DNA of 63,048 nt from Catajapyx aquilonaris (Eukaryota): the NCBI GenBank assembly GCA_000934665.2, contig JYFJ02002105.1:1-63048 (forward strand), read 5' to 3'. Both the position numbers and the translations under genes were made by a program. The notes below the pieces were generated by a model that saw only the letters and a list, made by a program, of their open reading frames with translations, ran no database searches and was not told the DNA's origin. Position 1 is the stretch's first letter; every line of letters starts with the position of its first letter. Shown here in pieces: positions 9,535 through 53,051 of this stretch.

Positions 9535-9760
9535 GTAAAGTACACCCTCGTGCTACAGCCAAGCTTCCTTTCATGTGAATGCCTCTTTGCTTTGAGCTAC
9601 AAACATATCCTGGGGGTGTGTAACCAGTAGGACTCTAGAAGCTGTTTATTTCCTTTCAACTGACTGGCATGTTCCCTGTTGTGCATCGCTAGAACACAAC
9701 TCTCCTAATCATATGTGGGATGTATAATACTTATTGTAAACCACCGGATGAACATTTCAG

Positions 9761-10370: not shown

Positions 10371-10424
10371 CAAGATGGCGGCTTCCTGAGACACTTTTCG
10401 CTGGAATTTGGAGCAAGAAAATAG
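10371..10424 (+). promoter_or_regulatory. Probable ZNG1 non-coding first exon with YY1/Pho motif
   Basis: CAAGATGGCGGC (extended YY1 consensus) at 10371-10382 in a small CpG-containing patch. Donor AG|GTGAGA at 10425 pairs with acceptor TCCCCTCCAG ending at 10600, 5 nt before the ATG. The TSS is not determinable. Confidence 0.55.
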
Positions 10425-10605: not shown

Positions 10606-10798
10606 ATGATGGCCAGTTCATCTGATGATGAAGAAGTTCCTGATCTTGTCCCTGTCATTGAATCCACCCAATTCTCGCCGGTGCCTGTGACCATCATTAC
10701 CGGACAGTTGGGAGCTGGGAAAACGACGTTGCTCAACTATATCCTGACGGAGCAGCACCAGAAGAAGATTGCCGTAATCCTCAATGAATTTGGAGAAG
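10606..10798 (+). CDS. ZNG1: ZNG1/CBWD coding exon 1
   Basis: [17 protein letters not shown]...[39 protein letters not shown]; donor GT at 10799. Confidence 0.95.
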
Positions 10799-13700
10799 GT
10801 TTGACATGATTGTATGAGGAGGTGGAATGGAAAAAAATAAGTCTTAACCTACATGATTTTTTTTGTTAATGTGCAGGTGATGCAATGGAAAAGAGCCTTG
10901 CAATTGGACAGGAAGGAAACCTGTATGAGGAGTGGCTGGAGCTGAGAAATGGCTGCCTCTGCTGCTCTGTCAAGTGAGAACCACTCATACATTATTGTTC
11001 AGAAATTAGAAAAGCTTCAGTGTTTCTAGGAATCATTCTCGTTCTGTATACATAATTCTGTACAGTTCAGAACTAGCAACAAAATTGATAACTGGCACTG
11101 ATCTCTAGTTTTCATTAATCAAAAATTACGGTACCTTTTATGTTTGCTTGCCATTCTCTTATGATCTGTTGCAAACGTATTGCATTTCGTAATACACGAA
11201 TTTCCAATAGAATTTTCTTATTTTGATCTCCTTGTTACCTCAGCTTGAACTTGCATGCTATGCTGATGGAAGGAAGACCTTGGGATAGTAATTAACTCCT
11301 TGTAAAATCACATTATTGTCATACAAATATTTTTAGGCCTGTGTACGTAATGCACCAGGCTCACCAAGTTCATGCATCATGATAATTCTGCCCTACACAC
11401 ATTCTACTTTCCGATTCACACAGCATGAACCTTTTTGGATATATCCATACGCATGAAAGTAGTGCCCACCATGCCGGGTCCTACCGCTCCTACAACGTGC
11501 AGTTTGTGTAGCTACCACATGGGCTGCCCATGATTAGGCATTCGAATTACATGTACAGCACTGTTTCTTTGAGAAAGCCAGAGATACTGGGGACTAATTT
11601 TGCTGCGGCTCCCCGACCCCTCGGGCGTATAGATATCCAAAAAGGTTCACTCTTATGTGAATCAGAGAGTAACAGTGTGGAAGTGCAGTACTGGACACAT
11701 TAGCCGTCTCTAAATTTATTTATTTTTGTCGGCGGCAGCGCGCATAACCTGGCAACCTCGGCCGCCGGGCCAATTCAAACATCAACATATTATGGAGAGT
11801 GCTTAGTGTTCTTTCCATTGTTGCCACTGTTTACAAATCGAGTGAGTGACGCGGAGGACCCAACGACGGGTCTCTGCCTGCTTACACATCAGTAGCAAGG
11901 GATACGCAGGAAAAATGGGAAAATAATGATGTTAGAGGCAAGCCACTGGGGAAAATGTTCCCCGCTGGACTCAAAGAAAGGTTTTTGTCCACAGTGCACG
12001 AAATTCCATCCGGCATAGGAGAGGGGTAGACACCGCTTAATTAAAATCAGGGGTGCACTAATTGAAAGTGCATCAACTGACCGATTCTTTCAGTTTTTGT
12101 GTCTTTTCCCTCGGCGGAATAATAATAAGAATAATAAGAATAATAAGAATAATAACAATAATAAGAATAATCAGAGACGGCAAATGCATCCAGCACTGTA
12201 CATTCTTATATACCGAAGCAGGTTGGCGTGGTGGATTAGCCATCCGACTGCTAATCGGGAGGTCCTGGGTTCGAATCCCGGGGCCGGCAACCCTGGCCGT
12301 GGTTTTCTGTGGTTTTCCACGGCCTTTCTAGGATAATTCTGGGGTCGCTTTCGTATAATAGGCCACAGCCGCTTCCTTCCGTCCCTATCCTTGGAGGTTG
12401 AAAGGCAATGCTGGGCCAACCTCCCTAATATCAATTATAAAATGTACATTCTTATATGCAAGTGTCGATGATTCCATTATGTCTTTCAGGGACAATGGAG
12501 TCAAAGCTATTGAAAACCTGATGACTAAGAGAGGAAAGTTTGACTACATCCTACTGGAGACCACTGGCTTGGCCGATCCAGGTTCGGTATTAATTTACTA
12601 CAGCAGATTATTAAGAACAAGAGCTGATCAAAAAGCATATATGAAAAATTCCCTGATTCAAAATTTTCACACTGTCAAAAGTAGGCATAATTATGCAGAG
12701 TGGTATTTTGTGCATGTTGATAGTCCGAGCAGGGATGGCAGGGGATTGATTGACCAATGGCACTGTAAGTCAGGAGCTCTCCTGCAGTGTAATTGCAAGC
12801 CACAAAATTGTTACATTTTTCCTTTGTAAATGGTTAAGACTAGAACAGTTTACAATCCAAATCCCTCCATCATGCAGATGCAAAGAAGTATGAAAAAAGA
12901 TAAAGAGAGCCGCCTAATTTTAGGCAGAGTCAGGAAGAATTTGTACCCTCGGTAGAGGATGCATACTGACATGTGAGTTGCATCATTGCAAAGGAAAAGT
13001 TGAAAAGTATTATCCTTATCTCGCACATTTTCAGTAAGTTTTTTTTTATAGCCACACTTCATGGTGCAGCAAATTATCCAGGTGATATTCAACCTCAGAC
13101 CACATGTAGCATGTGTATCATGTTGGGTATATCTTGTATACCCATACTGTCCCTTATGTAGGATGCAAATTGCCAAAGATCATGATTTTGTGGGCTGGAC
13201 CTAATAATGATTGCCACATGTTCACTACTGGAGTTACGTCTGGCAACCCATGAGACCATGCAATAGTTCCAGCTATAGTTCTATACCAATCTTCATGGAG
13301 TCAGCTGTGGCTAGAGCCTCGTACCTCAAGAGATCGATTATTGCGTGGATAATTTGTTGTTCTACCTAAGGTGTTCACATTAAATTTTATTGAAAGTAAT
13401 GTGTTGAGAAAGATCTTGAACTCTCAGCTTTGAAATGACTGCCTTAGCTATTTGGTGGCAGCATCTTTCCTCCCATGTTTTGAGTTACACAAAATATGAG
13501 TTTTTTTTGATTTTGTTCCAATTAATTGTGGAAAAAAGTGCGATGGAATTATTTTTTTAAATACTCGCCAAAGTTAGATAAATTCTTAGGCCACTTCTCC
13601 GCATACTCACCTTTCCTATTGAGGCACTTGTCTTTTAAGTGGCACCAGCTTTTGAATGCCTAATGCGATCATAGTTCCCACCAAGTGCGAGGCTCACTCA

Positions 13701-16700
13701 GTAATTAGATTTCTCCTTACTGAAGGACACACTGCAGCCATAATTCATAGGTGATTGTGTAATGTGAATGGAGAAAAGTACACAAGTGAAAGTGCTGAGA
13801 GGAAATGGGTGTCAGAATTTTCAAGGACAAATTGATGTCCATGGTGACGAAGGTCAGGGGAGACATCTGACAATGTTGTTGAACAAGTTGACGAAGCAGT
13901 TCAACAACACCACTGGTTCAAAATTTCTGATCTGTTGGCTGATTTTCCCCTAATATTGTGGTCAGCTCTTTTTGACATGTGGTGCAGGAGAGCTGGGCGA
14001 ACACAGGCTTTGTGCCCAGCGCATTCGAGAACAACAAAGAGCTGAAAAAGTGTGTGTTAGGTTGGCTCGTTACCCATGTGGCAACCTACTATGGGGAATG
14101 CACTCAAAACCTGGTGTCACATTATGACAAGTGATTCAATCTGGAAGGCAGCTATGTGGAGAAATAGCATAAGAATGTATCTAACTTTTGTGAGCATTTA
14201 TATTTTTCTCATCACTCTGGTCTTGCTTTCATAGGTCATAAGAACTTCATTTAAAAAATTATACAGGGTGATTCTCCAGAATGGAAACCCAAACATTCCT
14301 CAATAACTTTTTAACTATGGTATGGTTCCCGATGAAAATTGACCTGTACTTACCTTGGCTCATTTTTACTGTATTTGAATGACCCTTACATGTTGGTTTT
14401 CTTCCTTACTGTGATGTGATGGTTTTGCTGATGTTTCTTGTAGTCCCATTCCTTGTGAACTGTGTCAGAGTTACGGCGACCCGACCATAAAGGCCCCGCG
14501 CCAATGTATCTCATCATCCACAATTATTCAAAAGCTAATCAAGAACAAGAATTTACATTTACTGTCCTCACAAAAGGAACTCCAATCAAACGATTAATAG
14601 AATTTACGTTAGAGAAATTACATTTATATTTTAAAATGAAGCTGAGCCAAATAAGATCTGAAAAGCTGATAGTTCACAACAGTTCCGTGTGAACTGGAAG
14701 CCAGTTGCAATACATATAGTTTAAATGCTTTGATGTACAATAATAATTACATTTTCATGTGTGGTAACATTATTGTGATTTGTTTCAGGTCCCATTGCAT
14801 CAATTTTTTGGATGGATAAGGAATTGGGAAGTGACATTTACTTGGATGGTAAGTAACAACAGAATTTATAGCTCATTTTGTCACGTATGTGATACTTTAA
14901 GCCCACAATTCACTTCATGCTAAAAGTTCATCAATTGGGAAATTCATTTTGCACTACTGTGTCTAGAAAGACAAGGCGTTATTAAGTTGTCAAAATGTTC
15001 ACACAATTGGCGCTTGCATAGCTAGACCATTTTATTTCCCATTTCAGTACTTACTGGAAGGGTCCTAAAATGCACAGCATGGTTAACTATCTGCTTGAAC
15101 AGATGCAATTGGTTACCATCCAGTGTAATGGAGGTTACCAAGGGCAATTGTCTTGCATGCGCAGTATTCGAGGCTGATGATTTTAGTGCCAAATTTACTG
15201 TATTATTGCAAGAGGCTGTTCTGTGTACAATTACTTTGCCTGTCCGCCTTTTTTGAGCAGTAACTGTTTATCCCAAATTTAATTGACTGAAGCTCAACTG
15301 AACCCCACTGGGAAATGTGATGCACTCTTTTGGCCTAAGTAATATCAGGGAGGTTTTTTCCTAGTGTGTCATCTGATTGGTAACATACTTGTTGGCCCAA
15401 AACAAGTCAAAAATATAGGGGTGAGAAATGTCGAGGGACCAACTGGCAACAAGGTAGCTAATAAGGCACATTTGGGCATCTTTGCGACAAAAGCTGCCAC
15501 TCACCCAACAGCTTTTTTTGTAGGGAGAGTGGCAAGCAGATTACTCTTACATACTTCGACCACGTCATCACTCATTGCATTGTAACAACAGTTCAAAAAG
15601 AATTGTCCCGTCGCGTCGAGCAGGCAGCCACGTGTCAGGATGAAAGGAACCAGTTACTGGTTCCTTTCATCCTGATGCCTGGCTGCCCGCTCAACGCGAC
15701 AGGACAATTCTTTTTGAACTGTTGATACAACAAATCCAGTGACAATGATTCCCAGGCGAAGAGAAAGAGAGACAGAAACTGCCTGGAAAGGCAATGTTCC
15801 ACTTTGGCACCTAAAGTTGAGGGTAATTAATCCAGGGTAATTAATGCGCACTTTAATCTACTGGGTCCATGGAAACATGAACCATAAGACGAGTAGTGAG
15901 AACAGTAATGGCTCATACCCATTCTTTCATGTGTATGCTAAGGGATGCACAACGTGTGGAGGATCTAGCCTTACTCAAGGTGTAGTTCACAAGCATTGGC
16001 TACTGGTACAGATGGAGCTAAAGACCGCAGAAGGAACATTACGACCTTCACAAATCAAATGCAGAGTACATCAACATCCGTCTAGGACTTGGCACTTATG
16101 ATAGTGATGACTCAGCCTTACCGATGCACCAGATGTGATTTCTTAATTGGCACCATCCTGTTCAATGAGCTTTTCCTGGAACAGACCAGCAACTACAGGA
16201 AACTGGCACCCTCTTAGCCTAATGCGAGGTAGATGGCCTCCCAGGCTCTTCATGTCATGGTAGGAGGAAGACATCTTGCAGGAAGAGAATCTTAACATCA
16301 TTATGTGGAAGATTCAAATCTACAAATACCATCACCTGGTCTGCAGGATGTTGCAGGAAGATCAGCAGCACCCATATCACTTTTGAGGATCTTCTTCCCT
16401 GCGATTTACCACCAAAAGGATAGTTGTGTGAATATCTTCTTTGGCAGGATGACTCTTGGGAAATTCTATAGATGTATGAAGCTCTGTTCACCTTCAAGAG
16501 ACACACACAAGAGGAATTACTAGAGTGCGAGTGACCCTTGCTGCTATGGACAGGCAGACTACCAAATGAAATGCTCAGTACAGGTGTGAGCAAGATTCCA
16601 AGTTGACCATCTGACAGATCCAGCCTTTTTGCCGGTGAGGCTCCCTTCTGGCACAAGCTTTCTTCATGAATATCCGCTACATTTTTTGATGGAGCTCCAT

Positions 16701-19700
16701 AATTGAATTGGGACATCTTTTGATGAGATGGAAGCTGCAGCAGAGGCACCCATCCAAGTCTGCCTATGCACCCAGCAATAAGACTCTCGTTTTGAGCATT
16801 TAATGTTAGTCCCTAGGCATGTGAATTCCTTCCCGGTTCTGTGGAGGAAATAAACAGTTAAATTAATTTGGCTTTCACTGAACTTCAATACCCCCTGCAG
16901 TTTGGTCACTGATGAATTCAGTGCAATCTGCATGGGGTAAACTTACAGGATTTGGCAAGGACTACCTTATGCTGAGTAGTCAATTTGTCCAGCAAATTGC
17001 ATAATTGCTCACTGAGCAAGAATGAAAGAAATGGGGTTTTCCTCATAAGACAGGTAAACACTTCCAGATAGTGTCACTTGTCACCTTTGGTTATAGCCTA
17101 CTTGTAATACGGGGTCCCAGAGAAAGAATAAGGGCCTCCTCTCCGAACTCGATGGGGGGTACACAGGGTGGAGTTCTTGGATTCTGGAAAAAGGCATGGA
17201 AACATCTTGTCAGGGTTTGATGTGGTTTCACCTAACAACTTGGTTGATGCATCAGATGCAGAATTACAGGTACTGGTTCCGAATATGACACAAACTTTTG
17301 ACAAGTTTTCTAGAGAAGAAATAATTGTAGAGATTGCGCTGCATAGGAGACATTTACGAGCAACTGAAAGCAGTGCAGAAATCTCCAACAAGTGGTTGTC
17401 AATGAAGTTTTTGGAGTTTATTGTGGATTTGGACTTTTGCGATTCAGTGCCAAATCTATCTTTGGCACTATGATTTTTTTGACTATTTGTGTGTCTATGG
17501 CTTCATGCGAGCCAAGTTTTTAGAAACTCACAATCAGACTTGAAAGGACTACCTGCGGTTCATCATGAGCCAATCAAAGCTCTGTCAAAAGCTTTGAGCA
17601 CTCTCAATTGAACATGAAGTTCTTAGCAAAAACAATTGATTTTGATGATGTAATTACTGTACTAAGTTTGTAGAGTTAAAAGCTAGAAAGCAGTATTTAT
17701 TAATGTTCTTTGGGTTTGAAAGCTGTTTAGTTTAATAGTCATAATTTTCTTTTACTGTACAAAATAATTGTGCATTTTTAAGTCACATTTTTATTGCTAA
17801 AGTTGAGCAAGCAACGCATTTATCAACTTTCATATTTTTAACAAATTTTAATGGGCTAATAGGAGACAAAAACTATGGTCAGGTAGGTCCACACAGTATA
17901 GGGTGGCTGGTGTTACACGGTTGGGGGCGGGGGTGACATCATATGTCCACCCCAGGCACCAAATGCCCTTGGTATGCTACTGCCCTGTAGTGCATCTGTC
18001 TGCATTATACCTATGAAGTTAATGGGAAGTTTCACATATTTCTTGCATCATGCATTGGTAAAAAGCGAGAATTTTACAAGTACTTCGGTTAAGTCCTTAG
18101 TTACTGTTAAGCATAGCAGAAACAGAGTGTTCCATTATGGTTAGAGCATTTTTGGCACTAAGTAGCATGTATTTAAAGCAGTTACTCTGGCCTAGTTGCT
18201 TCATGCTTATACAGGGTGTTCATGAAAAACACCGACAAACCTATATCACCCCCGACCTAGGGACCAGACGATCACATTATGTAGATGAGTGATTATCCCT
18301 GGGCCGCCTCATTACCCTGCAAATTGCCTTCAAACAGGTAGTATAAAATATCCTGGAAGTTAGGCCACCCAACGAACCCTTCCCCAGTCAGAAGGGTCTG
18401 GAAGGTCTGGTGGCCGGACTTTGTTGGTTTGTTGCCCACAGGTGGTAAGGCCTCTATGGCTAGTTACACCTGTAGATTCTATTTAAAAGTCAGAAGGAGC
18501 GATTAGGCAAAAATCGCTAATCAGCAACGAGTCAATTATCTCAGTAATGAGGCGGTGTAGACATAATGTCTCCTCTACATAAAATGACCCTCACGTTACC
18601 ATTGGCCACTGGTATCAGTTTGTCGGTGTTTTTCATGAACACCCTGTATGCTGTAGTCTATCAAAGATATTAGTCTGCTAGTAGACCAGTTTCCTAGCTC
18701 AGGGAGCATTTTCTGGGCTGATATATAAAGAATGGCATGCAATGTGTGACATAATTGCATTTCCATCTGGGTTTTGCATCTGCTCACCAAGTATTTCCCC
18801 TCAGCATACACAATTTAATTTGGTAGTACTTGTGGAAATTCTATTTAAGCCAACCTAACTGTAAGGAATGGTCCAGTACCAACTCCAAAATTGTGAGTGT
18901 CTGTCTGTAATGTCAATTCAGGATGTGTTTGAATGTCACAGTGAAATATTTTATATATACAGGGTTGGGCAAAATGTATGGCCTGATTTGAATCACGTGG
19001 TACTATGATGCTGTTTGAGCATGCAGGGGATATTGGCATGTGCTGGAGTGGGGAAGGTTTGCCATTTGCAAAAATGGTGTCGTGGTCGCCAGAGAACTGT
19101 CCATTCTTTGTGGAGACTTATTTTAAAATTTACGAGTTCCCCATAGCTCTACGAAGGATATTTCTTAGCCATTTTGAACTGGGATATCAGGACGAAGTTA
19201 TCAACCACCAGACAAACATAAGGTGGGTGAAGCAATTCCTGAACACATCATCATGCCTGGACCAGAATAGCACTGTCCAAGGACTCCTTGGACAGTGCTA
19301 TTCTAGGACACAACGGACCCCCACCCAAAGGGTATTCAACGCACCACTCCAAATTCCTGGGCTATTGGCCGTTCCAAGCGTCCAAAAAGGTTCTTCGGGC
19401 CACTTTGTCCCTTGCTTTCAATTGTTGCACAGCTGGATCTTGTAAGGATATAAGTGCAGGACATCATGGATGATGTAGCACAGGGAGTGTGCCAACATTC
19501 ATAGTGCCAAGGTGTGCCTATAACTGCTGATCACTAAGGGCTTGGGAGGGTCGGCTATGTCCTTGGATGTCCAGTGCTTTTTTGGTTTCTGATGCTGTGT
19601 CCCGGAACTGCTTCACCCCCCTCATGATTGCCTGATGGTCGGGGACTTGGTTCTGACGTCCCAGCCCAAAATGGTGAAGAAAGATCCTTCGCACAGCTCT

Positions 19701-22700
19701 GGTGGAGTAATTATTTTTAAAATAAATCTCCATGATGACTGCACGGTGCTTTGCAGATCAAGACACAATTTTTGCAAATGTCAAACCTTCCTTACTCCAG
19801 CACATGCCCATATCCCTTGCATGCTCAAACAGCACCACCGTACCACGTGATTCAAATCAGGCCATACATTTTGCCCAACCCTGTATATATATATGGGGGG
19901 GGGGGGAATCCCATGCACAATAAAAGCCTTAAAAAATTGAAGCAGCCACCCAGTATACTTGCGACACCAAAGTTCTCTCCTTGCTCATCAGAGGATTTGT
20001 AGCAAGGCCAAAATGCTGTAAAAAATATTGGATTTCAGACTCAGGCTAAAAGTCAAGCAAAGGATAGGTGATGGCTAAAAAGGCTTTTATTTCTTTGATT
20101 GGATTGCCCCTGACCTCACAAAAACTAATTCATCCTGTTTGGGTGTCATGATTTTCTTATGGAAAATAATATCTGAAGGGTTTTAAGTTGGTACAACTGG
20201 GCTTTAGACTGCCTTAAGCCAAGATTAAATGTGAGCGATTTGATCAGCGATGTGCTCACATGTGAACACATCAGCTTTACAGCTGAATACATTTTATTAC
20301 CTACATAAAAGAATTAGATTCCAAAAAGGTAGTCCTTCATATTTGAATATTCATGATATGAAATGCAACCATGCATGGAATTACCAGTACTGTACCTTCC
20401 ACTGTCATTTGTGTTGCCACTTTATTTAAAATGTGTACTGTTTCAGGAATTGTGGCAGTAATGGACTGCAAGTATGGCCTTCAGGTAAGCATAATTTCGT
20501 TCACACTTCTCTGAAAACATTCCCATTGTTTTTTTTATCAGTGGTTGAGTGGTGTGCAGGTTGTCAGCATGACGATGGATAGGTCACGAATATCACTAAT
20601 GAGTTCAGTGTAAAACTGGTGATGTTTATGCCCCAATGCAGTACGGTAATACAATATTGTAAAGTAGACAAGCTCATGGCCTGTGATATTTGATTCAAGT
20701 TGGACCATGACTACTGCGCTTTTTTGCATCACACTGCTCACACATATCAATACGTAAGACAGTGGCACTTTTCACCCAAAATTCCCATTACATGTAAGCT
20801 CAACAATAGTGCAATAATGTAAAAGGTATGATGGACTCTGTGAATTCAGCATTATAGGGTAGAGTGATGTAACTTTCTGTGTGACATAACTTGTTTTCTA
20901 CTTGCTCTACCCTATATCACCTGTTTTTGCATGCAGTACATTTAGGACATCGCTGAGGCTTCTACGATATCATTTTACAAGGTGTGTCCAGGTGTGAAAT
21001 CACTTGCAGCAAGTAAATGATAAACATTTTCTGGAAGCACTTGCTATTTTGCTAATGTTTTTCAAGTCAAAATATTTCACTGAAATGTTGTACTCCCCGT
21101 TTTTTTCCTTTCTCTCTCTCTCTCACTCCCAAGTTTGGGAGCAAGCAGTTTGAATGTAATTCCCAGTTCGACACGTAATTGAGAACTGGTCGTGCCGATA
21201 TATCCCCGTCGTGCGCACTAGTTGACAAACTTCTGCAATTAGGGAAGAGCTAACAGTCGGGGTTCCGTGAGCTCTCATCGTCGGCAAGTGGAAGGAGGCA
21301 GGGCAATAATTCCTCCAACCCACCACCCCCCTTCCAAACTGCTGTTAGCTATATAGCTATGGACTCTATACATGGTGTTTCATAATGATTCAAACCCACT
21401 TCTAGGGATCATTTTATGTTCGGTTGCAGGTGGCCGGGATCGTTAAACTCACTTGTCAGCCAAAAAGTGATAGGCCCTAATTGAAAAGGGCTACTGCCTG
21501 ATGATTTTATTCATAAAATTAAACCTGTTTTTTAACTTTCTAAAATTAAAATGGCATGGTTGCATGAAGGGACTGCATATTTGCCAGGATAGTCCATAAT
21601 TACGATTGAAGACAAATCAGTAATGAGGCTTCAGATATACCACACTACAGTCATATACTTAAATTAATCCACAGTTTCCAGGAACTCACCCTATAGACTT
21701 TTCCTCTGTTACGAAACACCCTGTGCGGAGCCTTGCTGTTCCATCAAGCCGAGGCGAGCTATCCATCCACGTACCCGCAGCGTGCATCCCATCATCCCCC
21801 TGCCTGCCTTGGCTTTGCGCCGCATCCCCTTCAGCTTATTTACCGGCAGCCACTCATCTTTTTCCATCCCACACTCTGTTGGGGAATTACACTTTCCCAA
21901 GAGAGATAGACCTCATTTCCCTGCTGCAATCCCGGGAAACCCACCCCCATCCACCCACCACCCTTACACACAAAACCAGGGGAGAGAGAGAGAGAGAGAA
22001 GCTCTGCCAAGGAAGCTAGGAGGGGTGTGCTCATATAAGAGGGCCTTGAAGTGTAAATGATCAGCCGATATTACAATCCCCAGCCCTTTGCCTTCTGGGG
22101 GGCAAAGGCAATAGTACTGTTTGGCTCCCTGGAAAATGTGACAGGTGAATCAGCACCACTGTTGCGCACAGAGTACTGACATATTCGACAATGAAGAGCT
22201 GGGAACCATTAAGACACATCAGTTTATTTGACTGCCGAAACTGACGATTTTATAATTTTGTAATGAATTTCATAAATTGTCAGTGTGGCTCAAAGATATG
22301 CATGCTCTACAAAAAAAATAATAAAAATTAATAAAGTGAGGCTTGAGTTCATTGCATGAAACACATTTTACCATTGCCGATGAATAGGTTTTCCATATGC
22401 TACAGAGAGTTATTTTTTGAAGAACTGAGATACATGCATGGGAAAAAAAATTGGTTCTGTGTTTGACGTTCAAAAGTTTTTCATTTACTTTGGTTACTAT
22501 TCATGTCAAGTTGCTTGTGAAACAGATATTACAAGTACTTATCATGACTAGTGGATTTTCCAATCACTTCTCCCTTGCTGTTGCATGTGCCCCCGACAGC
22601 CATTCAACCAACCATACATATCCCCTTGAATCTGGGCCGCCCACATTTAAATTTTCCTACTAAATCCCGGAAATTTTATAAGGAAATAGAAAAAAAATAG

Positions 22701-34175: not shown

Positions 34176-34240
<65 letters not shown>

Positions 34241-38313: not shown

Positions 38314-38339
38314 TTTTTTATTATTATATATTTTTTTGC

Positions 38340-38345
38340 AATAAA
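38340..38345 (+). terminator. Candidate ZNG1 polyadenylation signal
   Basis: AATAAA 26 nt after the stop codon, preceded by a T-rich tract. Confidence 0.55.
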
Positions 38346-39943: not shown

Positions 39944-40067
39944 TATGGATACTTCCGTGCATGCTTGCATTGCTGGTTGCTGGAGTCAGGCGGTTGAGCA
40001 ATGGTTTGAGAGTGCGAGCGCCTGACTCTGGCAACCAGCAATGCAGGCATGCACAGGGGTATTCATA
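39944..40067. repeat. Imperfect inverted repeat (~49-bp arms)
   Basis: TATGGATACTTCCGTGCATGCTTGCATTGCTGGTTGCTGGAGTCAGGCG pairs with CGCCTGACTCTGGCAACCAGCAATGCAGGCATGCACAGGGGTATTCATA across a 26-nt spacer. Confidence 0.8.
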
Positions 40068-43000
40068 TTTCTGGTTCTAGGTTACTGTGGTAAGTTGGAG
40101 TACGGTACTCTACACTTTGCCGCATGTAATGAAAGAACTTCATTTACTTTGATCATGTCATTTACGAAAGATCATATTAATGATCATCATGACAAATCCT
40201 CATTTTCAGATCCATTAGCTAACTAGATTTCTAAATAATATCCCCGGAGCTTTGTATAATAGATACCTGTACTTTATGCTTTATAGTATAGTATGTATTC
40301 GGTTTTAATTGTCTATATGCATACTTTTTTTTCTTTGCCCTCTGCCCTTTCCGAGCCTCTATTATGAGACAAATATTGGCCAGATGTCCATTTCCAATTT
40401 GTTGGGTTTTCCAACAACATTGTTTACATATTGAAAAGGGTGCTGGTAGTTTTGTGCTGCCGGCTTCACTATACGTTTAGTTGATCATATCCCTACTGTG
40501 TGCCTGTCTCTGATCCTTTTCCTCTGCCGGTTTTCCCGAAGCGCCGAAGAAGAGGGGCTTTTGTCAGGAAAAGAGACAAAAGGCAAAAGCAAGGGAGCCG
40601 CTCGACAAAAGATCATCGGGGGGAAATATTTGTCAGAAATGTCCGGAGCCTTTAATATGCATCCCCTGAAAATCCTGCCGGAGTTAAAACAATTGTTTGC
40701 CCGGAGCCAGAGTCGTCCCGGGCTCAGATATTGCACGGCATCTAGGGTATTACAATAGGGGCCTATAACAGCTGTAGCTTCAGAAACGTCTCGACTAAAC
40801 ATTATTGAAATGCTGAGCTGTGCTGTTTCTCCGGCAGGATTATTGTTTCCGGTGCTGATTACTACCCTGGCAAAAACTGGGACCCATTGTGTGTGCCGTA
40901 GCTATTACTTGCCTCCAGTATATACACACACACATTATTGCGATGAAAGATGGCGTCTGAAGAGCAAGGGGGTGCCTTCCCTCGTTCGGGCCGTTTGCTT
41001 GTCACTCAGACTCAACTCGAGTGGAGCCCAAGCAACCCATTCTGCTTTGTAGCCATAACCCCCTCAGCTATATTTGGACTCGGGATCAAACTCTTTAGCC
41101 CATTTGTTTCCATTCTGCCACGCCATGTAGCGCTTTATCAGATTTTATAATGACGTATTGGGCAAGCCCTGAATTGAATGGTTGAAAAATTAAGTGAGAA
41201 CACCGGAACATGGCCGTGCTGGTCTCCACGAATCTGGATAGAGAAAATAAAACGCCCATGACCCTGCTGCAGAAGCGATATTGCGGAGTTAAAATTCATG
41301 GCTTGAACAGGAATGCAGGCAGGTCCCGCTTATAAGACGGGGGGGTTGTGCCAGCCTGCAAGTAAACATTTGGCTCCATAGCAATATGGGCCTATAAAAG
41401 CCGTGGAGGGAATGGAATGCCAACACGGGCTCAATATATGAGCTCGCCCCGAGTCCTGAAAGATTCTGCAGCAAGGGCACAGCATCCACCACCTCTCATT
41501 TATAGAGAGAGGGGGGGCCATATCCAGAGTGGGTTGTCAACAGCCCTCCCCTTGTCCCCTCTCCAAAAAGCTGGTGAGAATGGGCCAAGCTGTCCGAGTG
41601 TGTCTCCAGAGACCCGCAGGTGTCCGGATTCCCCTGGTACGAATCCCAAGCCCTGCATAATATAATGCACCACGTGCGATGCCGCCCTTCCTTTTCCGTC
41701 CACGGAGTTGCCTCGGTACAAAATTACTTAAACTATAATTCTGGGAAACTGCTAGAGGGGGGAAGGGGAAAATTTAACAGGAAAAATTAAATAACAGAAA
41801 AAGGGATGGTTGTGTGTATCTTCCGGCAGAGTGGAGTTGCTTCTAGTGCTGTGTTAGCAACTGTCTTTAGCCATCCGGAAACACACGCAGTGCTCCTTGT
41901 CTGCTGAGCACTGGGCGTGAAGGTACCAGGGCAGGGACTGATTCTTTCGCGTGTCGTTTTTCACACCCTGCTGTGTAGTCTACAGCCTGCTGGTGTGTGT
42001 GTGTGCCGGAATTAATCCGCTCATTCCCTAGCGTCGCATAGCCATCTCACATGTACACAGGCTGGTTCATAACACTTTCACATACTGATAGGGTGAACTA
42101 TAGGATCATTTTAGGTATAGAGAAGTCATTTGGGCTTCAGCTTCAACAATGATATAATTCATATATTAATGATGTAAGCAACAGCCCCCTTTTTTATTGT
42201 CAAACCTGTTTTGTTGACGCCATCATGTCAGCACCCATCCGCGCATATCGTGCTGCTGTATACAGACGGACAATTACTTAAACTGTAATATGTGGACATG
42301 TTAGAGGGGGGGTAGGGAAACCTGGTGCCACATTTTCTGCTTTCCAGGAGAGCGGGCCAGTGTCTGAATCGTCGTCTGTGTTTCCCAGCATCCGTCCCCG
42401 AGTCCGCCGCTCTCTTTGTGCCGTCTTTAGCCATCCGTAAATTGGTGGAGTGTGGCTGGGGGAAGGGGTGCAGGGGAGGGTACAGGGTGAGTCAAGACCA
42501 TCCAGTCGCAATTGGTTCGAAACGCATTAAAATATGAAATATCTGTGAGAGATGTTAAACAAACAAGTAGCCTAACATATACATGTAACTTGTATAGGTG
42601 GCCGCATGTGGAGCGCACCTTGTTGTGTCTCGCCAGTGTATATCTACTGAGTAGGCAGTACCTGTCCTTTTTTTTGAATCACCCTGTAGAAGCAAGCAAG
42701 CAAGCAATGGTGAGCAGGCTGAAGCAAAAGCTCCCGGGTTTCCATCCAAGCCAACCAACCAGACGCAAAACCATCCATCCATCGCTGCTTCCCGGAGTGA
42801 AAAATCAGCCGGCGGGAGAACCGACGTTACCATGGCGGTACATCAATGTTGACATAACTTAATTGAAGCGAGTGGAGTCGGAAGCGAATGGGAGTTTAAT
42901 ACAGCATTTTATTGCCGCATTCCTTTCCGCCCGGATGCTGCGTGGCTGGAGAGATCTAGCCCCCTGATGCTGCCTGGGCTCGGCGACAACATGGCGTTCG

Positions 43001-46000
43001 TGATATATTATTGAGGTGCGCTGGCACACAAAAGGATCCCCAGCCTCTCATCCCCCCCCCCNCCTCTTCAAAAACGGCGGCCGCACGAATGAGCCCAAAT
43101 ATTTTCCCTGTTGTCGTAATGAGGCGTTATTGCACTGCCTCAAAACTCGGGGAAGGGTTCCCCCCCACGGACAAAAGAATGATGGCTGTTGGCTGACGAC
43201 CAATAAAAGCAGAAAGGGGAGAGATGGAGGTATATAAATAATGATCAAAAAAACATAACATGCGGTCGCCTTCGGCGTGAAAATTTTAGTACAGCAGGGT
43301 GAGAATAAGACATATCTGAAAGGAGTCATTAATATTCATATATAGAGTGACACTGATCTACTAATCACTCCAGTAGCACATACGGGATTTACCGATGGGA
43401 ATGCGCATGTGCATCTGGAGTGAATAATCCATCGCCATGCACCAAAATTCCAGTATATAGTTGAGCTCAAAATGTTTACAGCAGTGTTTGCGCACTGCTT
43501 TTTAACATACAAATCCTTCGCGGATATACATAAATCTGTGTTGTCCTATTAAGTCGCGCGGCTGCATAACGTTCGTCTTATTCGGCTCAGTCGGAAAACC
43601 TCAGCGTAGAAGTGTCGCCTTTGTGAAAAAAAAGTCCTAAATCCCTCCAGACCCGAGCCATAAATCCGCCCTATTATAATGAATTATGACGTGGGTTTTT
43701 GGTGACAAGTGCGAAAAAGCCCGGATCCGCATTCCTATAAGGACACACCATTTGTCAAAGAAAAAAATTTGTGGGACACCATTATGATGATCCAATAACT
43801 CTTTACCCAATTTTCTCTCTCTTTTCGACTAGCTGTTTTTTTTAATGCATTTTTCCGACTGGGTGTTGGGTGGATAGCTGTTTTACCCCTCCGTAGGGCC
43901 TCAACACCCTTGGCTAAATATTTGCACAGAGTGACAAACTTCTCAGAGAACATGGGCAGCTGTTGCGCCGCTCTGGAATTGTAATTATGCTGGCCAAATC
44001 AATAGAAAGGACGGGGATTGGGACAGTTGGGCCCGTCGTTCACACCAGGTTATATACAGCTTTTATATATACAGGCACCTTTTTTGCACTCTCAATTAGC
44101 AGTGCGCAACTGACGGATTTAGCTAAATTAGACTGGCAAAGTATCCATTGGTATGGAGCAGTGCTGGAATTACTCGAAAAAACACGGCGGTTCCTCCAAA
44201 CAATGTCCCAATTTGGGGATGATGGCCGGTATAAGTTTAAGGCAACCTCCGGCGTTCATAATGAAGGCTTGATGAACACTGCTCAAGGGGGGCATAATTC
44301 GATAACCATAATTGCATGGGGGTAGGCCAAGGAGAATGAGCCTTGCTTGGCTGCTGTGTACAGGATACTGGGAGTGGGTGGAGTGGGTGGGGATCAGCAG
44401 AAGTTCATTGATCACACCTCCTTTTTTTATATACTATCGGGAAAAGAGGTTTCTTCCCTTGTGCTTTTGTCGGCGAGGCACAAAACTCGTGGCCTCTTAC
44501 ATCTTGTTTTGGCCGTCAATCTCAATTCCCCAGTGTCAGTCTGTATCTCCACCGGCTGCCTATAGGCTCACCTTCTACAAGCCCTCTTCAATTTGCAAAA
44601 CTTCGGGCCATTTCAATCACTTATCCACATGATGCGTTTCTGATGGACGATAATCGAGTTCTTCCTTTCAAATCGCTCTAACGAAATAATACTATAGGCG
44701 CTACTGATGAACGGTAATTGCTTTTGAAGTTCGCCTGACTCGAGAGCCGAGCCCGGGTAATCCAATCGTGGGGAGAGCTTGGGCCTCCAGATCGGGCGGA
44801 GAAGGACGAGGATTTGCCCCCTTCTCAAACTTGTCAATACCTTTTCCGCACTAGTTGACACACAGCGAGGATGCACCGACTGAGAAGAGTCCATCTGCCT
44901 TTATTTCCAACACTGCATGGCAGCCATGTTGCTTCCCCTGGGCGTGCCGCGCATGCGCAAAAAAATGGTATCGGGAGCACAGTCCTTCCTTGCTGGGGTC
45001 AACTTCAATCTAACTATTAATTTTTCATATCATAAGTAAATAATGTCAACAAGTGATCAGACGTAGCAAGGGTTGACATCAGAGGTGAATTATTAAAAAT
45101 AGATTCAACCAATGGTCCCGCTTCTTTTTGCCTCGAACTTATTTGCCCATGAAATGTGCAATAAAGCACAAAACGCTGTCAACAAATCCGGACCTTATGG
45201 ACACTAAAAATCAATTACCAAGCATCATTGTTCGCGCAAACGAGCTGCAAAATGTTTCAAATTCTCCTGCACAAATGCATTTTATAAATCCGGACAGGGG
45301 ATGGATCCACAATCCCCCAAAAATAGCTTTCAGTTCTGGGAAGCACCACTGGAAAAATACTGGCCATAACGGTGATAAGTCACATCAAGGAGAGCTGTGT
45401 GTGTGCTGGCCACAAATAAACACAAACGACGCTCGTAATTTGGTGCCCTGGATTAGGACCGGAATGCTTGCCTCTGGGTGGCCACCAGGGTTACATCCAC
45501 GTCACTTCCGGCATCTCAACAATCCAATCTAAACCCTATGTATTGCATCCCCCACAAAATGTTTTGGACAAACTTATATCATGACGATATACTGGTGACG
45601 ATATAAAATCAAATTTTTTTTTGTAACTTCCACCTTGATAGAGTGCTGACGGTTTTGTATTATATGCCCAGCAGCTGTTACCCTCATTTTCTAAACCTCT
45701 CCTCTAAACCATCCGGAAGCGAGTGCTACATTGCACAGAATCCGGTTTCAAAACTATGTGTCGTCTGCAAAGTGAGAAATTTCGGCCTTTTTCCAAGAAC
45801 TGACTGCCGCAGTTGGCTTGGTTTTAACGGTGGACAAAACTCCAGGGGAGGTCCTCGGCCTTTTCAGAGACCTTTTTGGCCATTTAGCATTCCCTGTCTG
45901 GCCCCCAAAGATCCTTCTTGCTTCCACTCTATCACGTCCCATGTCCCCTGTTTCCCTTATCCTCCAGAAAATATTGTGAGGATTATCTCAAAGCAGATGC

Positions 46001-49000
46001 AGGATTTTGGTTTTTGCTGCGTGTGGTCCATCCTTCAGGGTTTTGGGGCCGAAAGCGGAGTCATTTACTGGAATTATTCGTATAGTGAACATTCCTGCCA
46101 TTTTATCTAGATTGCACCCCAAAAAATATTATAATAACTGTTACATCACGCCTGCTGGTGTACTATTCACGTTAGTAATACACGAATTCTGGGGAGTTTC
46201 AAAGCAATATTTGCAACTCCGCATTACCAGTGAAATAACGCAGTTGCACAACTACGGATAATTTGTAAATGTTTGTGGCGCAAGTTAATTTGCATGATTA
46301 AATGTGGCTAATAATTCGATCGATCATGATCTGACGGCTATAGTTTAGTAATCAACATACCGTGTCGTTACATGTCAGCTTCCATGGGACATGACGTACA
46401 AAATACATATAGTTACATATACGTTAGAAGCTTATTAGTGTAGATGCTGTGCACAGGAGAGACGCAGCTGTTGTCGATAGCAAGCAGGCGAGACGTTTCT
46501 TTCCAACATAAACAAATCAGTTGGGCTGCGAGACGTTTTGAATGATGGAGCTGGATCCAAGGAAAGGGGGGGAAGATGGCCCCTCCTTTTTCCGCTTCTT
46601 CTCACACAGCTACACAGTTCACGACACCTGATCTACGGTCCTGGTTCAAGAGGAGGTGAACCCCAAGTTGGAGTCAAGCAGTCTGGGGAGCTCCCTCGCC
46701 AGAACTAAACGGGGAGAATCAACCCCTCACACCACTCACAAGATATCAAAAACAGCTGCCCAAAGCTCCCTTTCCCAAACTAAATATTGTTGAAGCCGAT
46801 TTTGAAAGTTTGGAGAGTGATTATTCGAGGGAAGAGAGCGGGGCGAAAATATTGCGTGCTAAAGTCAGTGGGAATCCTTTTGAACCGGATTGACTGATGA
46901 CACTCCTGGGTGTAAGTCAGTGCAGGATAAACAACAGGATGCTAAAAAAAAGATGAGTCTGTTCCAGGCCAACCTAACTGTGGCGGATTTTTTTTACGAA
47001 CGCAACCGAGAGCGCACCACAGTTCGCGCAGCTGGCACGGTTGGCATTATCAATGACACCTCTTTGTACAATGGGTGTACTCAAGCGCTACACTTATTTC
47101 CAACGCTATATGCTTGGGGAGAAATAATATGGCCGACGTTTGCGACATTGCTACGTGAGTGTTGGTGCGCACTCGGTTGTGTTCGTAAAATAAATTCATT
47201 GTAGAATAGCACTTGCTATCTGTCCCTGTCCCATCGTGTAAACAACCAATCACATATTTTTCTGGAGAACAAACTTATGAGCTAGTAAACATGTCGTATT
47301 TGGATGTCTGTGACGAATCGACAAAAAAAATATGGGCGTCCCGCAGTCTGCTTGGCTGGGAATAAATGGTCGGACAGGACGTGACCCGCGAACAAGCCTG
47401 GCAGATGCGTGCAAACCCATGACGGCCGGAGAAACCCATTTGGAATTTGGGTAAACTAAGAAGGGTTTATACGCCGGGCCTTCTTCTCTCTCTCTCTCTT
47501 TTTTTTGCAGCCCTTTTTGGTTTATGTTGGCATGATTTCGGCGTCTCTTTTTAAGCCGATTCGTAGAGATTGCAATTGGAGCAGGTTCGTATCCGTATGG
47601 CGCGTATGGTTGGCACCAGCTTCCAAAATGCGGTTTCAAACACTTGAGTTGATAGCATCCGGAGAGACCACACGAGGGTTACAAAGCTACTGTCAGCTCC
47701 AATCGCGGCATAACTCGGCTCAGTTATCTGGAGCACGGTTGTGTTGCCAATTTCGCGCCTTGTTTGTTTGCGTTTGATTCCCAAGCGGGCGCCGCATAAA
47801 AGTCTGGCCCTTTGGCAACAACCTGAAGTGCTTTTCTTTCACGTGGAGCCGACAAGCGCACAAATCTTGGGACAAGTGGATCCATCATCAACCACTGCGG
47901 GGGCTTAAGACCCAAGCCCTTTGAGGACGGACAGCAAGCCAGGCGACTACAACCAGAGAGCTAGAGAGAGAAAAAACGGAGCTAGAGGGGGGTAAAAAAC
48001 GAGGTTGTGAAAAAGTTCTCACATGAGCCGTCAACGCCTGTGTCGTTTTACGAGCAAATATTTCCTCTGGGAGCCAAACAGCAGGCGAAGGAAAAGGAAG
48101 AGAGTCTGAGGGACGAACTAAACATTCGCTGGTCTCGATAACTTTTGCATATGGCGGGCCTCCACTTTGTAACCCAACCGCGCTATTTATATGGGGACGG
48201 GCCCCTCGATGCGCAGATGTGCCAGTTGTTTTCATTGCGTCGTATCGCAAATAAATCATCGCTTTGTTGAAACTAAGGTTTTTGGCGAAAACCGACACCT
48301 GATGACTCGTATACTTGCCACACGTTTTGTCGGACCGGATTATAACAGAAGAGCTGGGCGACAAAATGTGTCAGGTGTGGGCTTTATTTTCATTGGACCA
48401 CCGCGGGTATGATGAAAACTTGTGGCACGGTTCGGTGTTCGGTCCTGGATTTATGTTGCGGAGGATAAACATTGTACCATGCGTTGATAAGCAATCTGCG
48501 TGTGGTCTCGCCCGATAGCGGTGAGTTACGGCGTTAATTCCGCATGTACCATACGACATGTAGCTGCTTGTAAAATTTACCACGGCTTAATACTTCTCTA
48601 AGCCGTACATGTGTACACCGTTTTTATCGGCACGAACCGATTGCCGAAATGTGCTGAAAGTGAAAATTTTTGTTCCTAATTGAAAAGGCACAAACTTCAG
48701 ATAGTAAGTGGCAATGCAGTATATATAGAAACCAGCGCACTAGTATAGTGTACGTAAAATTCATCATCGGATGTTTTTATCCGACAGCAATATTATCATT
48801 ACAATGATGATGAGTTGTCGTATTTCTTTGGCAAAGTCTACTACACTTGAAGGCTGCATTGCAACCAACAAGCACCAGATGTATGGTTGAAAGGACAAGG
48901 ACATTATAGGCGAGAAAGAAGGGCCCTTCACTTGTGACGCCACCTGTTGGCTCATTACGGCATAATTTGCATGCATACGAGCCCTGGGATATTAAACATT

Positions 49001-51629
49001 TTAAGAGACACAAAACTGGAGGAAAGGTTGCAAGCAAGGGCTGCTCACAAGTGGGTGTATACAGCATGGCACAATAATAAGCACAACTGTTTTTAGTCCA
49101 GTTGTATATATGATTTCGCTTTAAGTTTGATTCCGGTGAGTGGCATATAATTCGAATAATGTATATTTCTAAGAGGGTTTTGAGCCGATTGCGACCGCAG
49201 TGCAAGGGTGCGAATCAGCATGCTATCGGCGTGGGCAAACCGTGCCATGTGGTCAAGAGTCCCTCGTGAAGAGCCCTCGAACGGCCATGTTTGAGCCTAT
49301 AGGGGGGTGGGGGGGACATGAAGCACAGGCACTGCATCACGCAGCACTGATTTATGAAAACGGCCGTCTGCGCCTCATTGTGGTGATCGCGGGGCCAAAT
49401 GAGCTCCATATGTAAATGTTAGCGATGGGCCACAAAGGATGGGCGGCGTTTCCAACCACCCTGTTTCCCCCCTTCAGTCGCATATACACAGGGCTCAGCA
49501 CTATTGCCACTACAGGGTGCAACCACCCATGGACCACTACAGACTTCCACTTCAGACCGGTTGTCGGAAAAATGAATCGGATGAGGGAGAGAGGTGAACC
49601 GTTTTGAGAGAGGCTCTGCAGTCCGCTCCACTGGCTCCGATTGCAGATTTACCTCAAAGATGGCTCTATGTCGCGGAAAAGAGCCCGCATGTTAACTCAA
49701 TCCCTGGCGCCAAGTGGGCCTTTGGTTTTGGAGGCAAGTGCAACCCGGGGGGGTATACAGTTAAACAATTCAAAATCCAGCCACTCCCCAGCAGCGCCAT
49801 CCAATAAATTAAAAACAAAATGTGATTCCGTTCATCAGAGCGAATATATCCACAGTCGAGCGATCACACACATTAAACCGCAACGATGACAAAACGCTGC
49901 CGTATCGCATTAGGGCTGCAAATTGTCCATTAACCTGCCCTCTCTCGCTGTTTATGAATATTCATTGCGAAAACAAATTCTATTGGCTTGCCTGGCAGCA
50001 GCTGGGAACAGCAAGGGGCAGACCCAAAATAATTGACGCTAAACTTGTCCCATCGGGTTGTGTATATGTGTAGTGCGCGTCGATTTGCATAATATGTGAT
50101 TGGCTGCAGTAATTTAGCTCGTACATGCAAAATGATCGAAAATAATTTTTTTTGCAAACACCCTGTGTAATGTGCGTTGGCTGTGCAATTGTTGGGGCAG
50201 TGAGTGAAAGCAGAGAACGTTGGGACAAGCAGCTAGGAGACGGGGGGAAAGCGCTGACAAACTCTTTGGCCGCATTTTCTTTCGCTCGCAAATTGTTTCC
50301 CATCTGTCTGAATGAGCCGATCCAAACAGGTTGATTAAAGCGACCGTTCGCGCGCTCAATTCTTCCCCAGCCTTCCCAATTACACTTGATTGAAAAAGAA
50401 GATTGGTTCGTAACATTCATTGGCAACTTGCCTCCGGAACAAGGGGACCTGGGACCGGAATTGTTCCCGGACGCTGTAGCACCAGTTTGCGCTATAACAC
50501 CCACTCCAACACGCAAAAAAACACGGCTCGAATGTACAGGAGGATGCAAAAAGTGCCTCCAAAAAAACGAGGCACTGCTGATCGCATTGTTATAATAAAA
50601 CGCAAGTGTCATCGATGAGCAAAATTGTATAGTTACTGGCATACAAATATGTAAACAAATTAATTATAATTGTCTGGAGCACCTTGTACATGTCCACCAC
50701 ATGGCAGAGCGTCACATGCAGCATGCCTATAGACAACAACAACAGAAAAAAAACTCTCTGTGCAGTTCTGTACTGCTGGCAAAATTGAGTGCCGGCAACC
50801 ACAATGAGCTGATATGCAAACAATGGCTCTCGTTGCGAATTTGCATCCGACTCGCTGGCTTTTGAAAACATTACATGTATTAACGTCATCTCAATAACCC
50901 AGCCATGTGGACATATGTTGCCCGGCAACAATCCCCAGCCCTTTTATTCATGCGAATACATTTTCAGCTTTTTCTCTCTCTATATGTCTCTTCATGGTGA
51001 TGATGCTTGGATTACACTTGTATCCAACCTGAAGCCATCAGATGGCCACTATGGCGGCTATAGTCCTGCCCTGTTTGCCACTTGTTTTGAAGGAACTTGC
51101 CAAGATGCTTATCGGTTCGTTAATTAGCTGAGGTCATGCCATCAAGGGTCAGGCCTTAGACGAAATGTAATTAACGGTAGCGAATTGCTTCATTTATTGA
51201 CTGTGTCCATGGTAACATCACGAGGCATATATGTAAGTGCATTGCAAAAATATTGTTTATTCACTGTGTCACTGTCGGCTTCGCATCTAGAGATAAATCA
51301 AGCTGACACGACAAAAGGTAAATGTATTTCGCAAGTTGACTTTGTTAACGCGGTTACATCGAGTCCGCACAACAATAAAGAGGGATGAGCCACGCCATAT
51401 TTCATGCACTAAACAGGATTTAAAGCTTCTTATCTCTCCATCTACGTTATGCAACCAACAACTAACATTGGAGGGCTCACCTTTTTTTTCTCTCTTTTTC
51501 CTGCGTCTATTTTTCCCCCCCGGATAATACGATTAAAGATACGCCGCGGTCGAGACGTGAGGACATTCTCTTTATCCGAGGCGAGTTGTGCGACAGACAC
51601 ACCCCAAACGCGTCCAGATTGACTGGTTG

Positions 51630-51805
51630 AACCCGCCCAATTCCACGCCTACATTGGGTGCTCCGTCCAATGGGATGATGTGAAAACCCGCCCCTCCATG
51701 TTCCGGAGGGGCTTGGTGGGGCGCATGGGGGGTGCTAAACAAAAGAGGCACGGTTTTCTGGGAGAGCTTATAAGCCGGGGGTCACTTATCGCGTGTTTCA
51801 AGTCT
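51630..51805 (+). promoter_or_regulatory. FoxD proximal promoter
   Basis: GC boxes CCGCCC (~51633, ~51688), CCAAT boxes (~51637, reverse ~51653, ~51667), forkhead-like TAAACAA (~51736) and TATA-like TATAAG at 51769-51774, ~70 nt upstream of the ATG. Confidence 0.6.
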
Positions 51806-51842
51806 GGTTATGGCGCGGCAGTGAGTGAGTTAGCTGTCTGGC

Positions 51843-53051
51843 ATGTGTTTGGCAATGGAGGTGGTGACGGTGAGTGACCTGGACGGGGTCAATCCGGATG
51901 ACTCGCCGCTGGACCTTAGGGGGGCCACGGTTGACTCGGACTGCGATTCGGACATTGGCGATATCAATGTGGATTCGGACGACGGTGAGCAGATGCAGCA
52001 GCAGGTCAGCCAGCCGGAGGTGCCGCAGGAGCCGGTGTCGGAGGTCAAATCGGACGATGAGTCCAAGGAGAAGAAGAACAACAGCATGGTGAAGCCGCCG
52101 TACTCGTACATCGCTCTGATCACCATGGCCATCCTGCAGTCGCCGCAGAAGAAGCTGACCCTCAGCGGCATCTGCGAGTTCATCATGAATCGGTTTCCGT
52201 ACTACAGAGAGAAGTTTCCGGCGTGGCAGAACAGCATCCGGCACAACCTGTCGCTGAACGACTGCTTCATCAAGATTCCTCGAGAGCCTGGCAACCCGGG
52301 GAAGGGCAACTACTGGACGCTCGACCCGATGGCCGAGGACATGTTCGACAACGGAAGCTTCCTCCGACGAAGGAAGCGGTACAAGAGGCAGCAGCCGGAC
52401 TTCTTCAGAGACGCCGCCGCCGCCGCCCTCCTGGTGGGTCAAGACCCTTACCACCCCATACTGAGCCCACACCACCCGCTGCACCATCACCATCACCACC
52501 ATCCGGTCCACCACCACAACCCGTACCCGTTCCTGACCCCGCTGCCCCCCGCTGTGCCCCTGCTGGGACCATCCGAGCTGGCGCGTCTTTCCCTAGCGCC
52601 GCTCAACCTCAACCCTTTTGCCCTTCCGAAACCGATACCGGTCAGCACCAGTCATCTGGTCGCAACATTGAAGAGCAGCACCCCGGGGCCGACCACCAGC
52701 AAGAACAACAATGGGTTCAGCATCGACAGCATCATGGGGAACAAGAGCGATCAGGTGACCAAGCCCACTCCGATGGCACCCAGGATGACCCCTGCCTCGG
52801 CCACGCTGCAGGCCATCAAGTCGAGAGCCGCGGCTTCCACGTCGTCAGCGTCGCCAGCGTCCGTGTCGCCGCCTGTCAGCAGGAGCTTGGAGTCGGCCTT
52901 CGCACCTCCCGTGCCGGTCACCAGCTTGACCCTGATGGGTCACCACAACCCGCATCAGGGGCTGGACAAGTACAGGCACTACTGCGCGGGAGCTGCGTCC
53001 CTGTCGCCCGCGGCCGCAGCCGCAGCCGCTGCAGCCGGATGGGCCCGGTGA
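51843..53051 (+). CDS. FoxD: Forkhead box D transcription factor (FoxD; fd59A/FoxD3-like), single coding exon
   Basis: 402-aa ORF (the ATG at 51855 has better Kozak context). FoxD-class forkhead domain [99 protein letters not shown], acidic N-terminus, His run, eh1 motif FSIDSIM and poly-Ala tail. Confidence 0.97.

Follow-up and report, generated by a model that had tools for sequence, protein, structure and literature searches.

The window analysed here is a 63,048-bp stretch of DNA that makes up the whole of contig JYFJ02002105.1 (our G000:C973) of the Catajapyx aquilonaris genome assembly, and in it we found an intact gene for the GTPase ZNG1 (also called CBWD) followed on the same strand by a gene for the forkhead factor FoxD. 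We consider it likely that this is the arthropod copy of an ancient FoxD-ZNG1/CBWD genomic regulatory block (GRB), with FoxD enhancers housed in the ZNG1 introns and in the spacer between the two genes. Three findings point to a GRB, namely a developmental transcription factor linked to an unrelated gene, a linkage that recurs across distant lineages, and a bystander gene with unusually long introns. Gene anatomy, orthology, same-scaffold linkage and intron length were observed here, while the age of the pair and a duplicated vertebrate element come from the literature. The pairing is already known from a published catalogue of ancient GRBs, and the window confirms that linkage rather than discovers it.

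In the mechanism that we propose, ZNG1 would be the bystander, an intact housekeeping zinc-chaperone GTPase, and FoxD the developmental target. FoxD enhancers would most likely be housed in the spacer (13.5 kb) and in the long introns towards the 3' end of ZNG1, so that any break separating the two would deprive FoxD of regulatory input. Selection against such breakage would have kept the pair together since before the arthropod-vertebrate split.

An intact ZNG1 gene lies upstream of a single-exon FoxD gene

Joining the exons of ZNG1 (Table 1) yielded an open frame of 1101 nt with no internal stops, and all 12 introns have GT-AG borders. Eleven of the exons were located by tblastn with 15 ZNG1 proteins and two by a scan of splice-compatible candidates, in which one exon scored 15.7 against -5.5 for the runner-up (98 candidates) and the other 17.1 against -9.9 for the next acceptor (26 candidates). 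The encoded protein is 54-60% identical over about 350 aa to its 25 best matches (insect, vertebrate and other) and matches Pfam PF02492 (cobW) above the cut-off. It possesses PDLVP (aa 12), the Walker A motif (GQLGAGKT, aa 33), the CxCC metal motif (CLCC, aa 91), ETTG (aa 120) and the NKxD motif (NKTD, aa 187), so that measured against known ZNG1/CBWD proteins (COG0523, Pfam cobW and CobW_C) all checked motifs are present and no departure was seen. We take Walker A, CxCC, ETTG and NKxD to have the roles customarily given to them. ZNG1 proteins characteristically transfer zinc to METAP1 in a GTP-dependent manner. Phylogenetic analysis placed the protein in an animal ZNG1 clade with support of 100/100 against three fungi, and within the tree of 29 rows it fell among the arthropods (84/86, drawn open) and not within the clade of winged insects (96/91). 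Ahead of the start codon there is a probable non-coding first exon region, predicted from sequence, with a CAAGATGGCGGC motif at 10371 that is presumably of YY1 type, and past the stop codon an AATAAA follows at 38340.

FoxD, for its part, has a TATAAG at 51769 ahead of its ATG, and the protein carries FSIDSIM at aa 292, which we take to be an eh1-type motif. The forkhead domain shares 91-98% identity with those of 15 FoxD proteins, compared with 80% for FoxE3, 66% for FoxC2 and 53-69% for six other Fox domains of the same genome. In a domain tree without crustaceans it fell inside the FoxD clade (95/94), apart from FoxC, FoxE and the other Fox genes of the genome, and was sister to four insect FoxD sequences (99/91). 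Compared with known FoxD-class forkhead factors the window FoxD shows no departure.

Genome-wide family and protein searches revealed a single ZNG1 locus and a single FoxD, with the next-best Fox protein being 68% identical to FoxD. A 2120-bp contig (C12172, locus L088) that covers the ZNG1 5' end was considered as a second ZNG1 gene and rejected, as it is a 94.4% copy of window positions 10721-12892 with matching exon residues, which looks allelic; it is probably an uncollapsed allele. The preliminary description of this DNA had placed the ZNG1 stop at 38313 and the FoxD start at 51843 on one strand, and our gene models reproduce these coordinates exactly, while the "apparent protostome" of that description can now be called an arthropod on the basis of both trees, and is probably a hexapod of an early branch or some other pancrustacean.

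Table 1. Coordinates of the ZNG1-FoxD pair and its intervals in the window.
Feature	Position	Strand	Description
Putative non-coding first exon region of ZNG1	10371..10424	+	donor after 10424, acceptor ending 10600; predicted
ZNG1/CBWD (COG0523 G3E GTPase)	10606..38313	+	13 coding exons, 366 aa; ATG at 10606, TGA ends 38313
ZNG1 coding exons 1-5	10606-10798, 10877-10973, 12490-12581, 14789-14848, 20447-20484	+
ZNG1 coding exons 6-10	24408-24454, 25231-25317, 25679-25723, 26785-26841, 28509-28566	+
ZNG1 coding exons 11-13	28647-28778, 37011-37140, 38249-38313	+
ZNG1 introns 3-4	12582..20446		CpG-depleted; young dispersed repeats in intron 4
ZNG1 introns 5-12	20485..38248		17.2 kb of intron, mostly single-copy, CpG not depleted; candidate site of FoxD enhancers
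ZNG1 intron 11	28779-37010		longest ZNG1 intron, 8,232 bp
ZNG1-FoxD spacer	38314..51842		13,529 bp, no recognised gene
FoxD	51843..53051	+	single exon, 402 aa; forkhead domain aa 84-168; ATG at 51843, stop ends 53051

The pair recurs in a published catalogue and in other invertebrates

The catalogue of Touceda-Suárez et al. 2020 (PMC7530604) lists FOXD4=CBWD1 as GRB_ID 39 with Irimia 2012 as the source, and scores it in five of eight non-vertebrate species (N_NVsp 5, maximum 8, key GRS=01011101), a key that the Isl-Scaper and Otx-Ehbp1 legends do not decode into the five species. In the supplementary tables drawn on here (S1, S3 and S4; pair 39 / 11.0) FOXD4 and CBWD1 are consecutive on chr9 (Table S3), the ancestry of the pair is given as "Metazoans" (Table S4), and FOXD1, FOXD2 and FOXD3 are unlinked from CBWD1, which leaves three of the four vertebrate FoxD ohnologs without the bystander. 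The same source lists a conserved region inside CBWD1 (hg38 chr9:160124-160231) that is duplicated, its twin lying near FOXD3 (chr1:62999340-62999446). The definition and method of GRB detection come from Irimia et al. 2012 (PMC3514665), the main text of which does not name the pair. The preliminary description, which could not say whether the pair had been reported, thereby has its answer, and its dating of the linkage to early bilaterians holds as far as great age goes, with the "Metazoans" label allowing an older origin. Our full-text literature search, which covered main texts and not supplementary tables, turned up no paper that reports the pair for invertebrates in its main text, and the portions of PMC4077281 and PMC10496407 consulted have nothing on it. 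The pair is possibly unreported for the window lineage and for hemimetabolous insects.

Set against GRB pair 39, the window holds the same two families in adjacency, with FoxD as the developmental gene and CBWD/ZNG1 as a single bystander with long introns. The differences are that the animal here is an arthropod outside the winged insects, that the coding span of the bystander is 27.7 kb as against the 58-kb human bystander (PMC7530604), and that a conserved region is listed for vertebrate CBWD1 whereas the window pair is known from gene anatomy and linkage. As in the Isl-Scaper and Otx-Ehbp1 GRBs, a developmental transcription factor sits beside an unrelated long-intron bystander across phyla (PMC3514665, PMC7530604). 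Those two blocks have reporter and chromosome conformation capture (3C/4C) evidence, whereas in the sources consulted FoxD-CBWD has the listed duplicated conserved region alone.

For a comparison among species we took the invertebrates found with a scaffold length both among the best 120 of 2291 ZNG1 matches and among the best 120 FoxD matches (n=10), so species with either gene outside these best 120 are uncounted. The scaffold length was identical for the ZNG1 and FoxD entries in all ten, and in eight of them, seven insects and Priapulus, the accession numbers of the two genes were at most 4 apart, accession order being a proxy for gene order that is silent on strand. These eight (ZNG1 / FoxD, the latter by final digits where shortened) are Zootermopsis (XP_021927591-3 / XP_021927594), Nilaparvata (XP_039277740 / 739), Macrosteles (XP_054277263-4 / 265), Laodelphax (RZF41417 / 41418), Blattella (PSN41726 / 41724), Cyamophila (KAL1462260 / 263), Bacillus rossius (XP_063225160-2 / 156) and Priapulus (XP_014668248-9 / 251, on a 284-kb scaffold). 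Second entries of Macrosteles show that accession numbering is not always positional. The ancient microsynteny put forward in the preliminary description is supported by the catalogue and again, for insects and Priapulus, by this survey. Among vertebrates present in both sets of matches FoxD3 was on another sequence than ZNG1 (linked in 0 of 2), which fits the unlinked ohnolog of the published table.

No holometabolan name occurred among the best 120 of 2291 ZNG1 matches, and beetles accounted for 14 of the best 120 FoxD matches. It is possible that ZNG1 was lost or diverges fast in Holometabola, which would be an erosion of the bystander without genome duplication.

Vertebrate ZNG1 isoforms and truncated gene models have breakpoints that coincide with introns of the window gene (aa 147, 160, 175 and 219), and in insects and Priapulus such breakpoints fall on its introns at aa 147, 160, 175-204 and 302-305; other truncated models end 3-10 residues off an intron and are uninformative. 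At least four intron positions appear to be common to vertebrates and the window gene. Human CBWD1 has 15 exons and lies in the same orientation as FOXD4. Intron 11 is also the point of divergence for the annotated short ZNG1 isoforms of Zootermopsis, Bacillus rossius, Schistocerca and Priapulus, a hint that several lineages have a long intron or an alternative last exon at this place.

ZNG1 introns are long and largely single-copy in the 3' half

The 27.7 kb span of ZNG1 for 1.1 kb of coding sequence gives a ratio of 25.2, whereas 16 housekeeping control genes ranged from 1.09 to 3.57 (median 1.58). Introns longer than 1 kb made up 8 of 12 in ZNG1 and 3 of 43 gaps in the controls (one-sided p = 2e-4). 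The controls were chaperonin and adaptin families, for which the search favours large-exon genes, and 16 of 25 control contigs were used, the other nine being left out as single or partial matches or as lying at a contig end.

Repeat content differed along the gene. Intron 4 contains two dispersed repeat families with inverted ends, at ~18200-18650 (95-98% identical to many copies) and ~18950-19890 (93-96%), the second of which encloses a DUF4817 helix-turn-helix frame on the minus strand (19521-19757); both are likely non-autonomous DNA transposons. In intron 2, ARAGORN called a tRNA-Ser gene at 12218-12289 (+), which we rejected given a weak Rfam score (30.7 bits) and its repetition across the genome; it sits in a stretch of ~180 bp repeated elsewhere at 82-90% and is probably a tRNA-derived short interspersed nuclear element. 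From 21 kb on, three short repeats were seen in the window among the scored candidates, which is a lower bound. A scan of the introns for a nested gene covered 106 frames of at least 70 aa, and its only matches were two exons of ZNG1 itself and a helix-turn-helix of transposon type.

The spacer and the integrity of the join

We found no intervening gene in the spacer, where none of 154 stop-to-stop frames (at least 50 aa) exceeded its Pfam cut-off, a scan that is weak for small exons, and where Rfam and ARAGORN returned nothing; this agrees with the earlier claim that no recognisable gene lies between the two. The same kind of scan picked up only 2 of ZNG1's own internal exons, and therefore a small-exon gene or a long non-coding RNA in the spacer could escape it. 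The one listed Pfam match, to ANK_LRRK2 at 50599-50862 (E 0.0036), scored 17.6 bits where the cut-off is 27.5 and was taken as noise. Most of the spacer is single-copy, with one dispersed palindromic repeat of ~280 bp at about 39795-40070, repeat counts being lower bounds.

That repeat is one reason to ask whether the adjacency is due to chance or to an assembly mis-join in this genome, two possibilities that the preliminary description had itself raised. The assembly, from which the join is known, is also fragmented (285.6 Mb in 20,583 contigs). Among sequencing runs searched with sampled sequence words no RNA run was listed, and the four DNA runs containing 95-98% of the words come from one study and may have supplied the assembly, in which case they would not be independent of it. 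Yet the window has no gaps and only two single Ns, each at the end of a homopolymer run, the repeat is short and at most 84% similar to its longer copies, and the pair returns both in the published catalogue and, by accession order, in eight of ten invertebrates. We regard chance or mis-join as the least probable explanation.

Nearly as improbable to us is co-regulation, in which enhancers or a chromatin domain would be common to ZNG1 and FoxD and both genes would be needed in the same cells. The shared strand and the adjacency fit it, with nothing further in its favour. The pair, however, runs tail-to-head rather than head-to-head and therefore has no shared promoter, and its 13.5 kb spacing contrasts with co-regulated ancient pairs, which are mostly head-to-head with short spacers. 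ZNG1 has moreover been lost beside three of four vertebrate FoxD ohnologs (PMC7530604), and the 5' half of ZNG1 has the look of a methylated gene body that FoxD lacks.

Do the ZNG1 introns hold FoxD enhancers?

Several observations weigh against a block of the kind that we favour. A search for conserved non-coding elements against 39 metagenome FoxD loci gave a best E of 0.21 for the spacer and nothing at E<=1 for the introns; only 6 of these 39 loci have at least 5 kb upstream, and all are distant and stop short of the ZNG1 position. Measured against a reversed-sequence control, the sole excess was a 38-bp AT-rich match (E 0.004) at a non-matching position. A ZNG1 exon was found in none of 80 metagenome Fox loci from a forkhead-domain scan, these loci being too short to be informative. 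In Xenopus tropicalis the gene order given in a preprint is Kank1, Dock8, Cbwd3, a Cyp gene and FoxD5a (10.1101/2025.06.11.659201), such that a Cyp gene intervenes between Cbwd3 and FoxD5a. Among the compared invertebrates, the accession order gives no strand and so leaves orientation aside. In Lineus and Diaphorina the two genes share a chromosome-sized sequence with accession numbers that are not neighbouring, by which adjacency is neither shown nor excluded, and an older Diaphorina assembly has them on different short contigs. The contrast in intron length may be inflated by the choice of controls, given the left-out contigs and the large-exon bias, and part of the ZNG1 intron length is young transposon DNA, as introns 2-4 hold young repeats.

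Some of these points suit an alternative in which the linkage is ancient but the introns carry no enhancers, FoxD regulatory DNA lying only in the spacer and downstream and breakpoints beside such a large regulatory zone being rare in slowly rearranging genomes. No conserved element was found in the ZNG1 introns, young repeats are tolerated in introns 2-4, and the 10 kb or more that follow FoxD are without a Pfam match (0 of 64 frames of at least 60 aa in 53052-63048, a gene-free zone that reaches the contig end), which offers much regulatory space outside ZNG1. Against it, introns 5-12 are long yet mostly single-copy with a CpG level as in the spacer, a duplicated element lies inside vertebrate CBWD1 (PMC7530604), and random gene order yields 0.015 conserved pairs per replicate (Irimia 2012, PMC3514665). 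We judge this alternative unlikely, though well ahead of co-regulation or a mis-join. A regulatory block with FoxD enhancers in both the introns and the spacer thus remains our preferred explanation. The earlier proposal that FoxD enhancers in the ZNG1 introns hold the pair in place has published support in vertebrates, from the duplicated element, and indirect support here, from the very long and mostly single-copy introns; an effect of such intronic elements on FoxD in the window animal is our inference.

CpG content steps up within ZNG1

The ratio of observed to expected CpG was 0.35 in intron 3, 0.32 in intron 4, 0.59 in intron 5 and 0.63-0.84 in introns 6-12 (save intron 10, of 80 bp, which has no CpG and falls outside that range), and 0.79 in the spacer. 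In 1-kb bins the mean was 0.36 at 12-21 kb and 0.69 at 22-38 kb (p = 1.3e-4, with limits set after looking). Exons followed suit: exons 1-5 contain 8 CpGs where 25.5 are expected, and exons 6-13 contain 31 where 41.1 are expected (p = 0.02). The ZNG1 5' half thus has a CpG pattern like that of a methylated housekeeping gene body, and FoxD does not.

One proposed reading is that germ-line methylation of ZNG1 ends near intron 5 because the last ~17 kb belong to an unmethylated regulatory domain of FoxD. Intron 2, which is undepleted (0.74), weighs against such a domain border. The controls ranged from 0.20 to 1.0 and were all shorter than 4.4 kb, and are therefore silent on whether long genes here are normally methylated at the 5' side only. 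We offer as tentative, and would sooner expect it to fail than to hold, the combined proposal that the CpG step near intron 5 is the border of FoxD's unmethylated domain, that ZNG1 was lost in Holometabola and that the block is widespread in early-branching arthropods and hemimetabolous insects. Neither the CpG-border nor the holometabolan-loss idea was found in the full-text literature search, within the coverage given above.

Surroundings of the pair

Upstream of ZNG1 the window carries an intronless F-box/leucine-rich repeat (LRR) frame of 412 aa at 2960-4198 (+; F-box-like 32.8 bits, LRR 52.6 bits), a frame at 6239-6904 (+) that by eye resembles the C-terminal part of a reverse transcriptase of the long interspersed nuclear element type and has no Pfam match, and tandem arrays at 1558-1929 with a 48-49 bp unit containing CACGTG. 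A C2H2 zinc-finger frame at 9752-10036 (+), which probably belongs to an adjacent gene as its last exon, ends about 570 bp ahead of the ZNG1 ATG; the 5' side of ZNG1 is therefore compact, and the FoxD side is not.

Significance

Our observations extend the pair, by accession order, to seven named insects and a priapulid and add a full gene model. The window offers a compact 42-kb arthropod version of the block, for which no functional test was found in the literature, and singles out intron 11 and the spacer for a search for FoxD enhancers. Should the CpG step prove to mark the edge of the FoxD domain, arthropod domains of this kind could be charted from CpG profiles, with no need of chromatin data.

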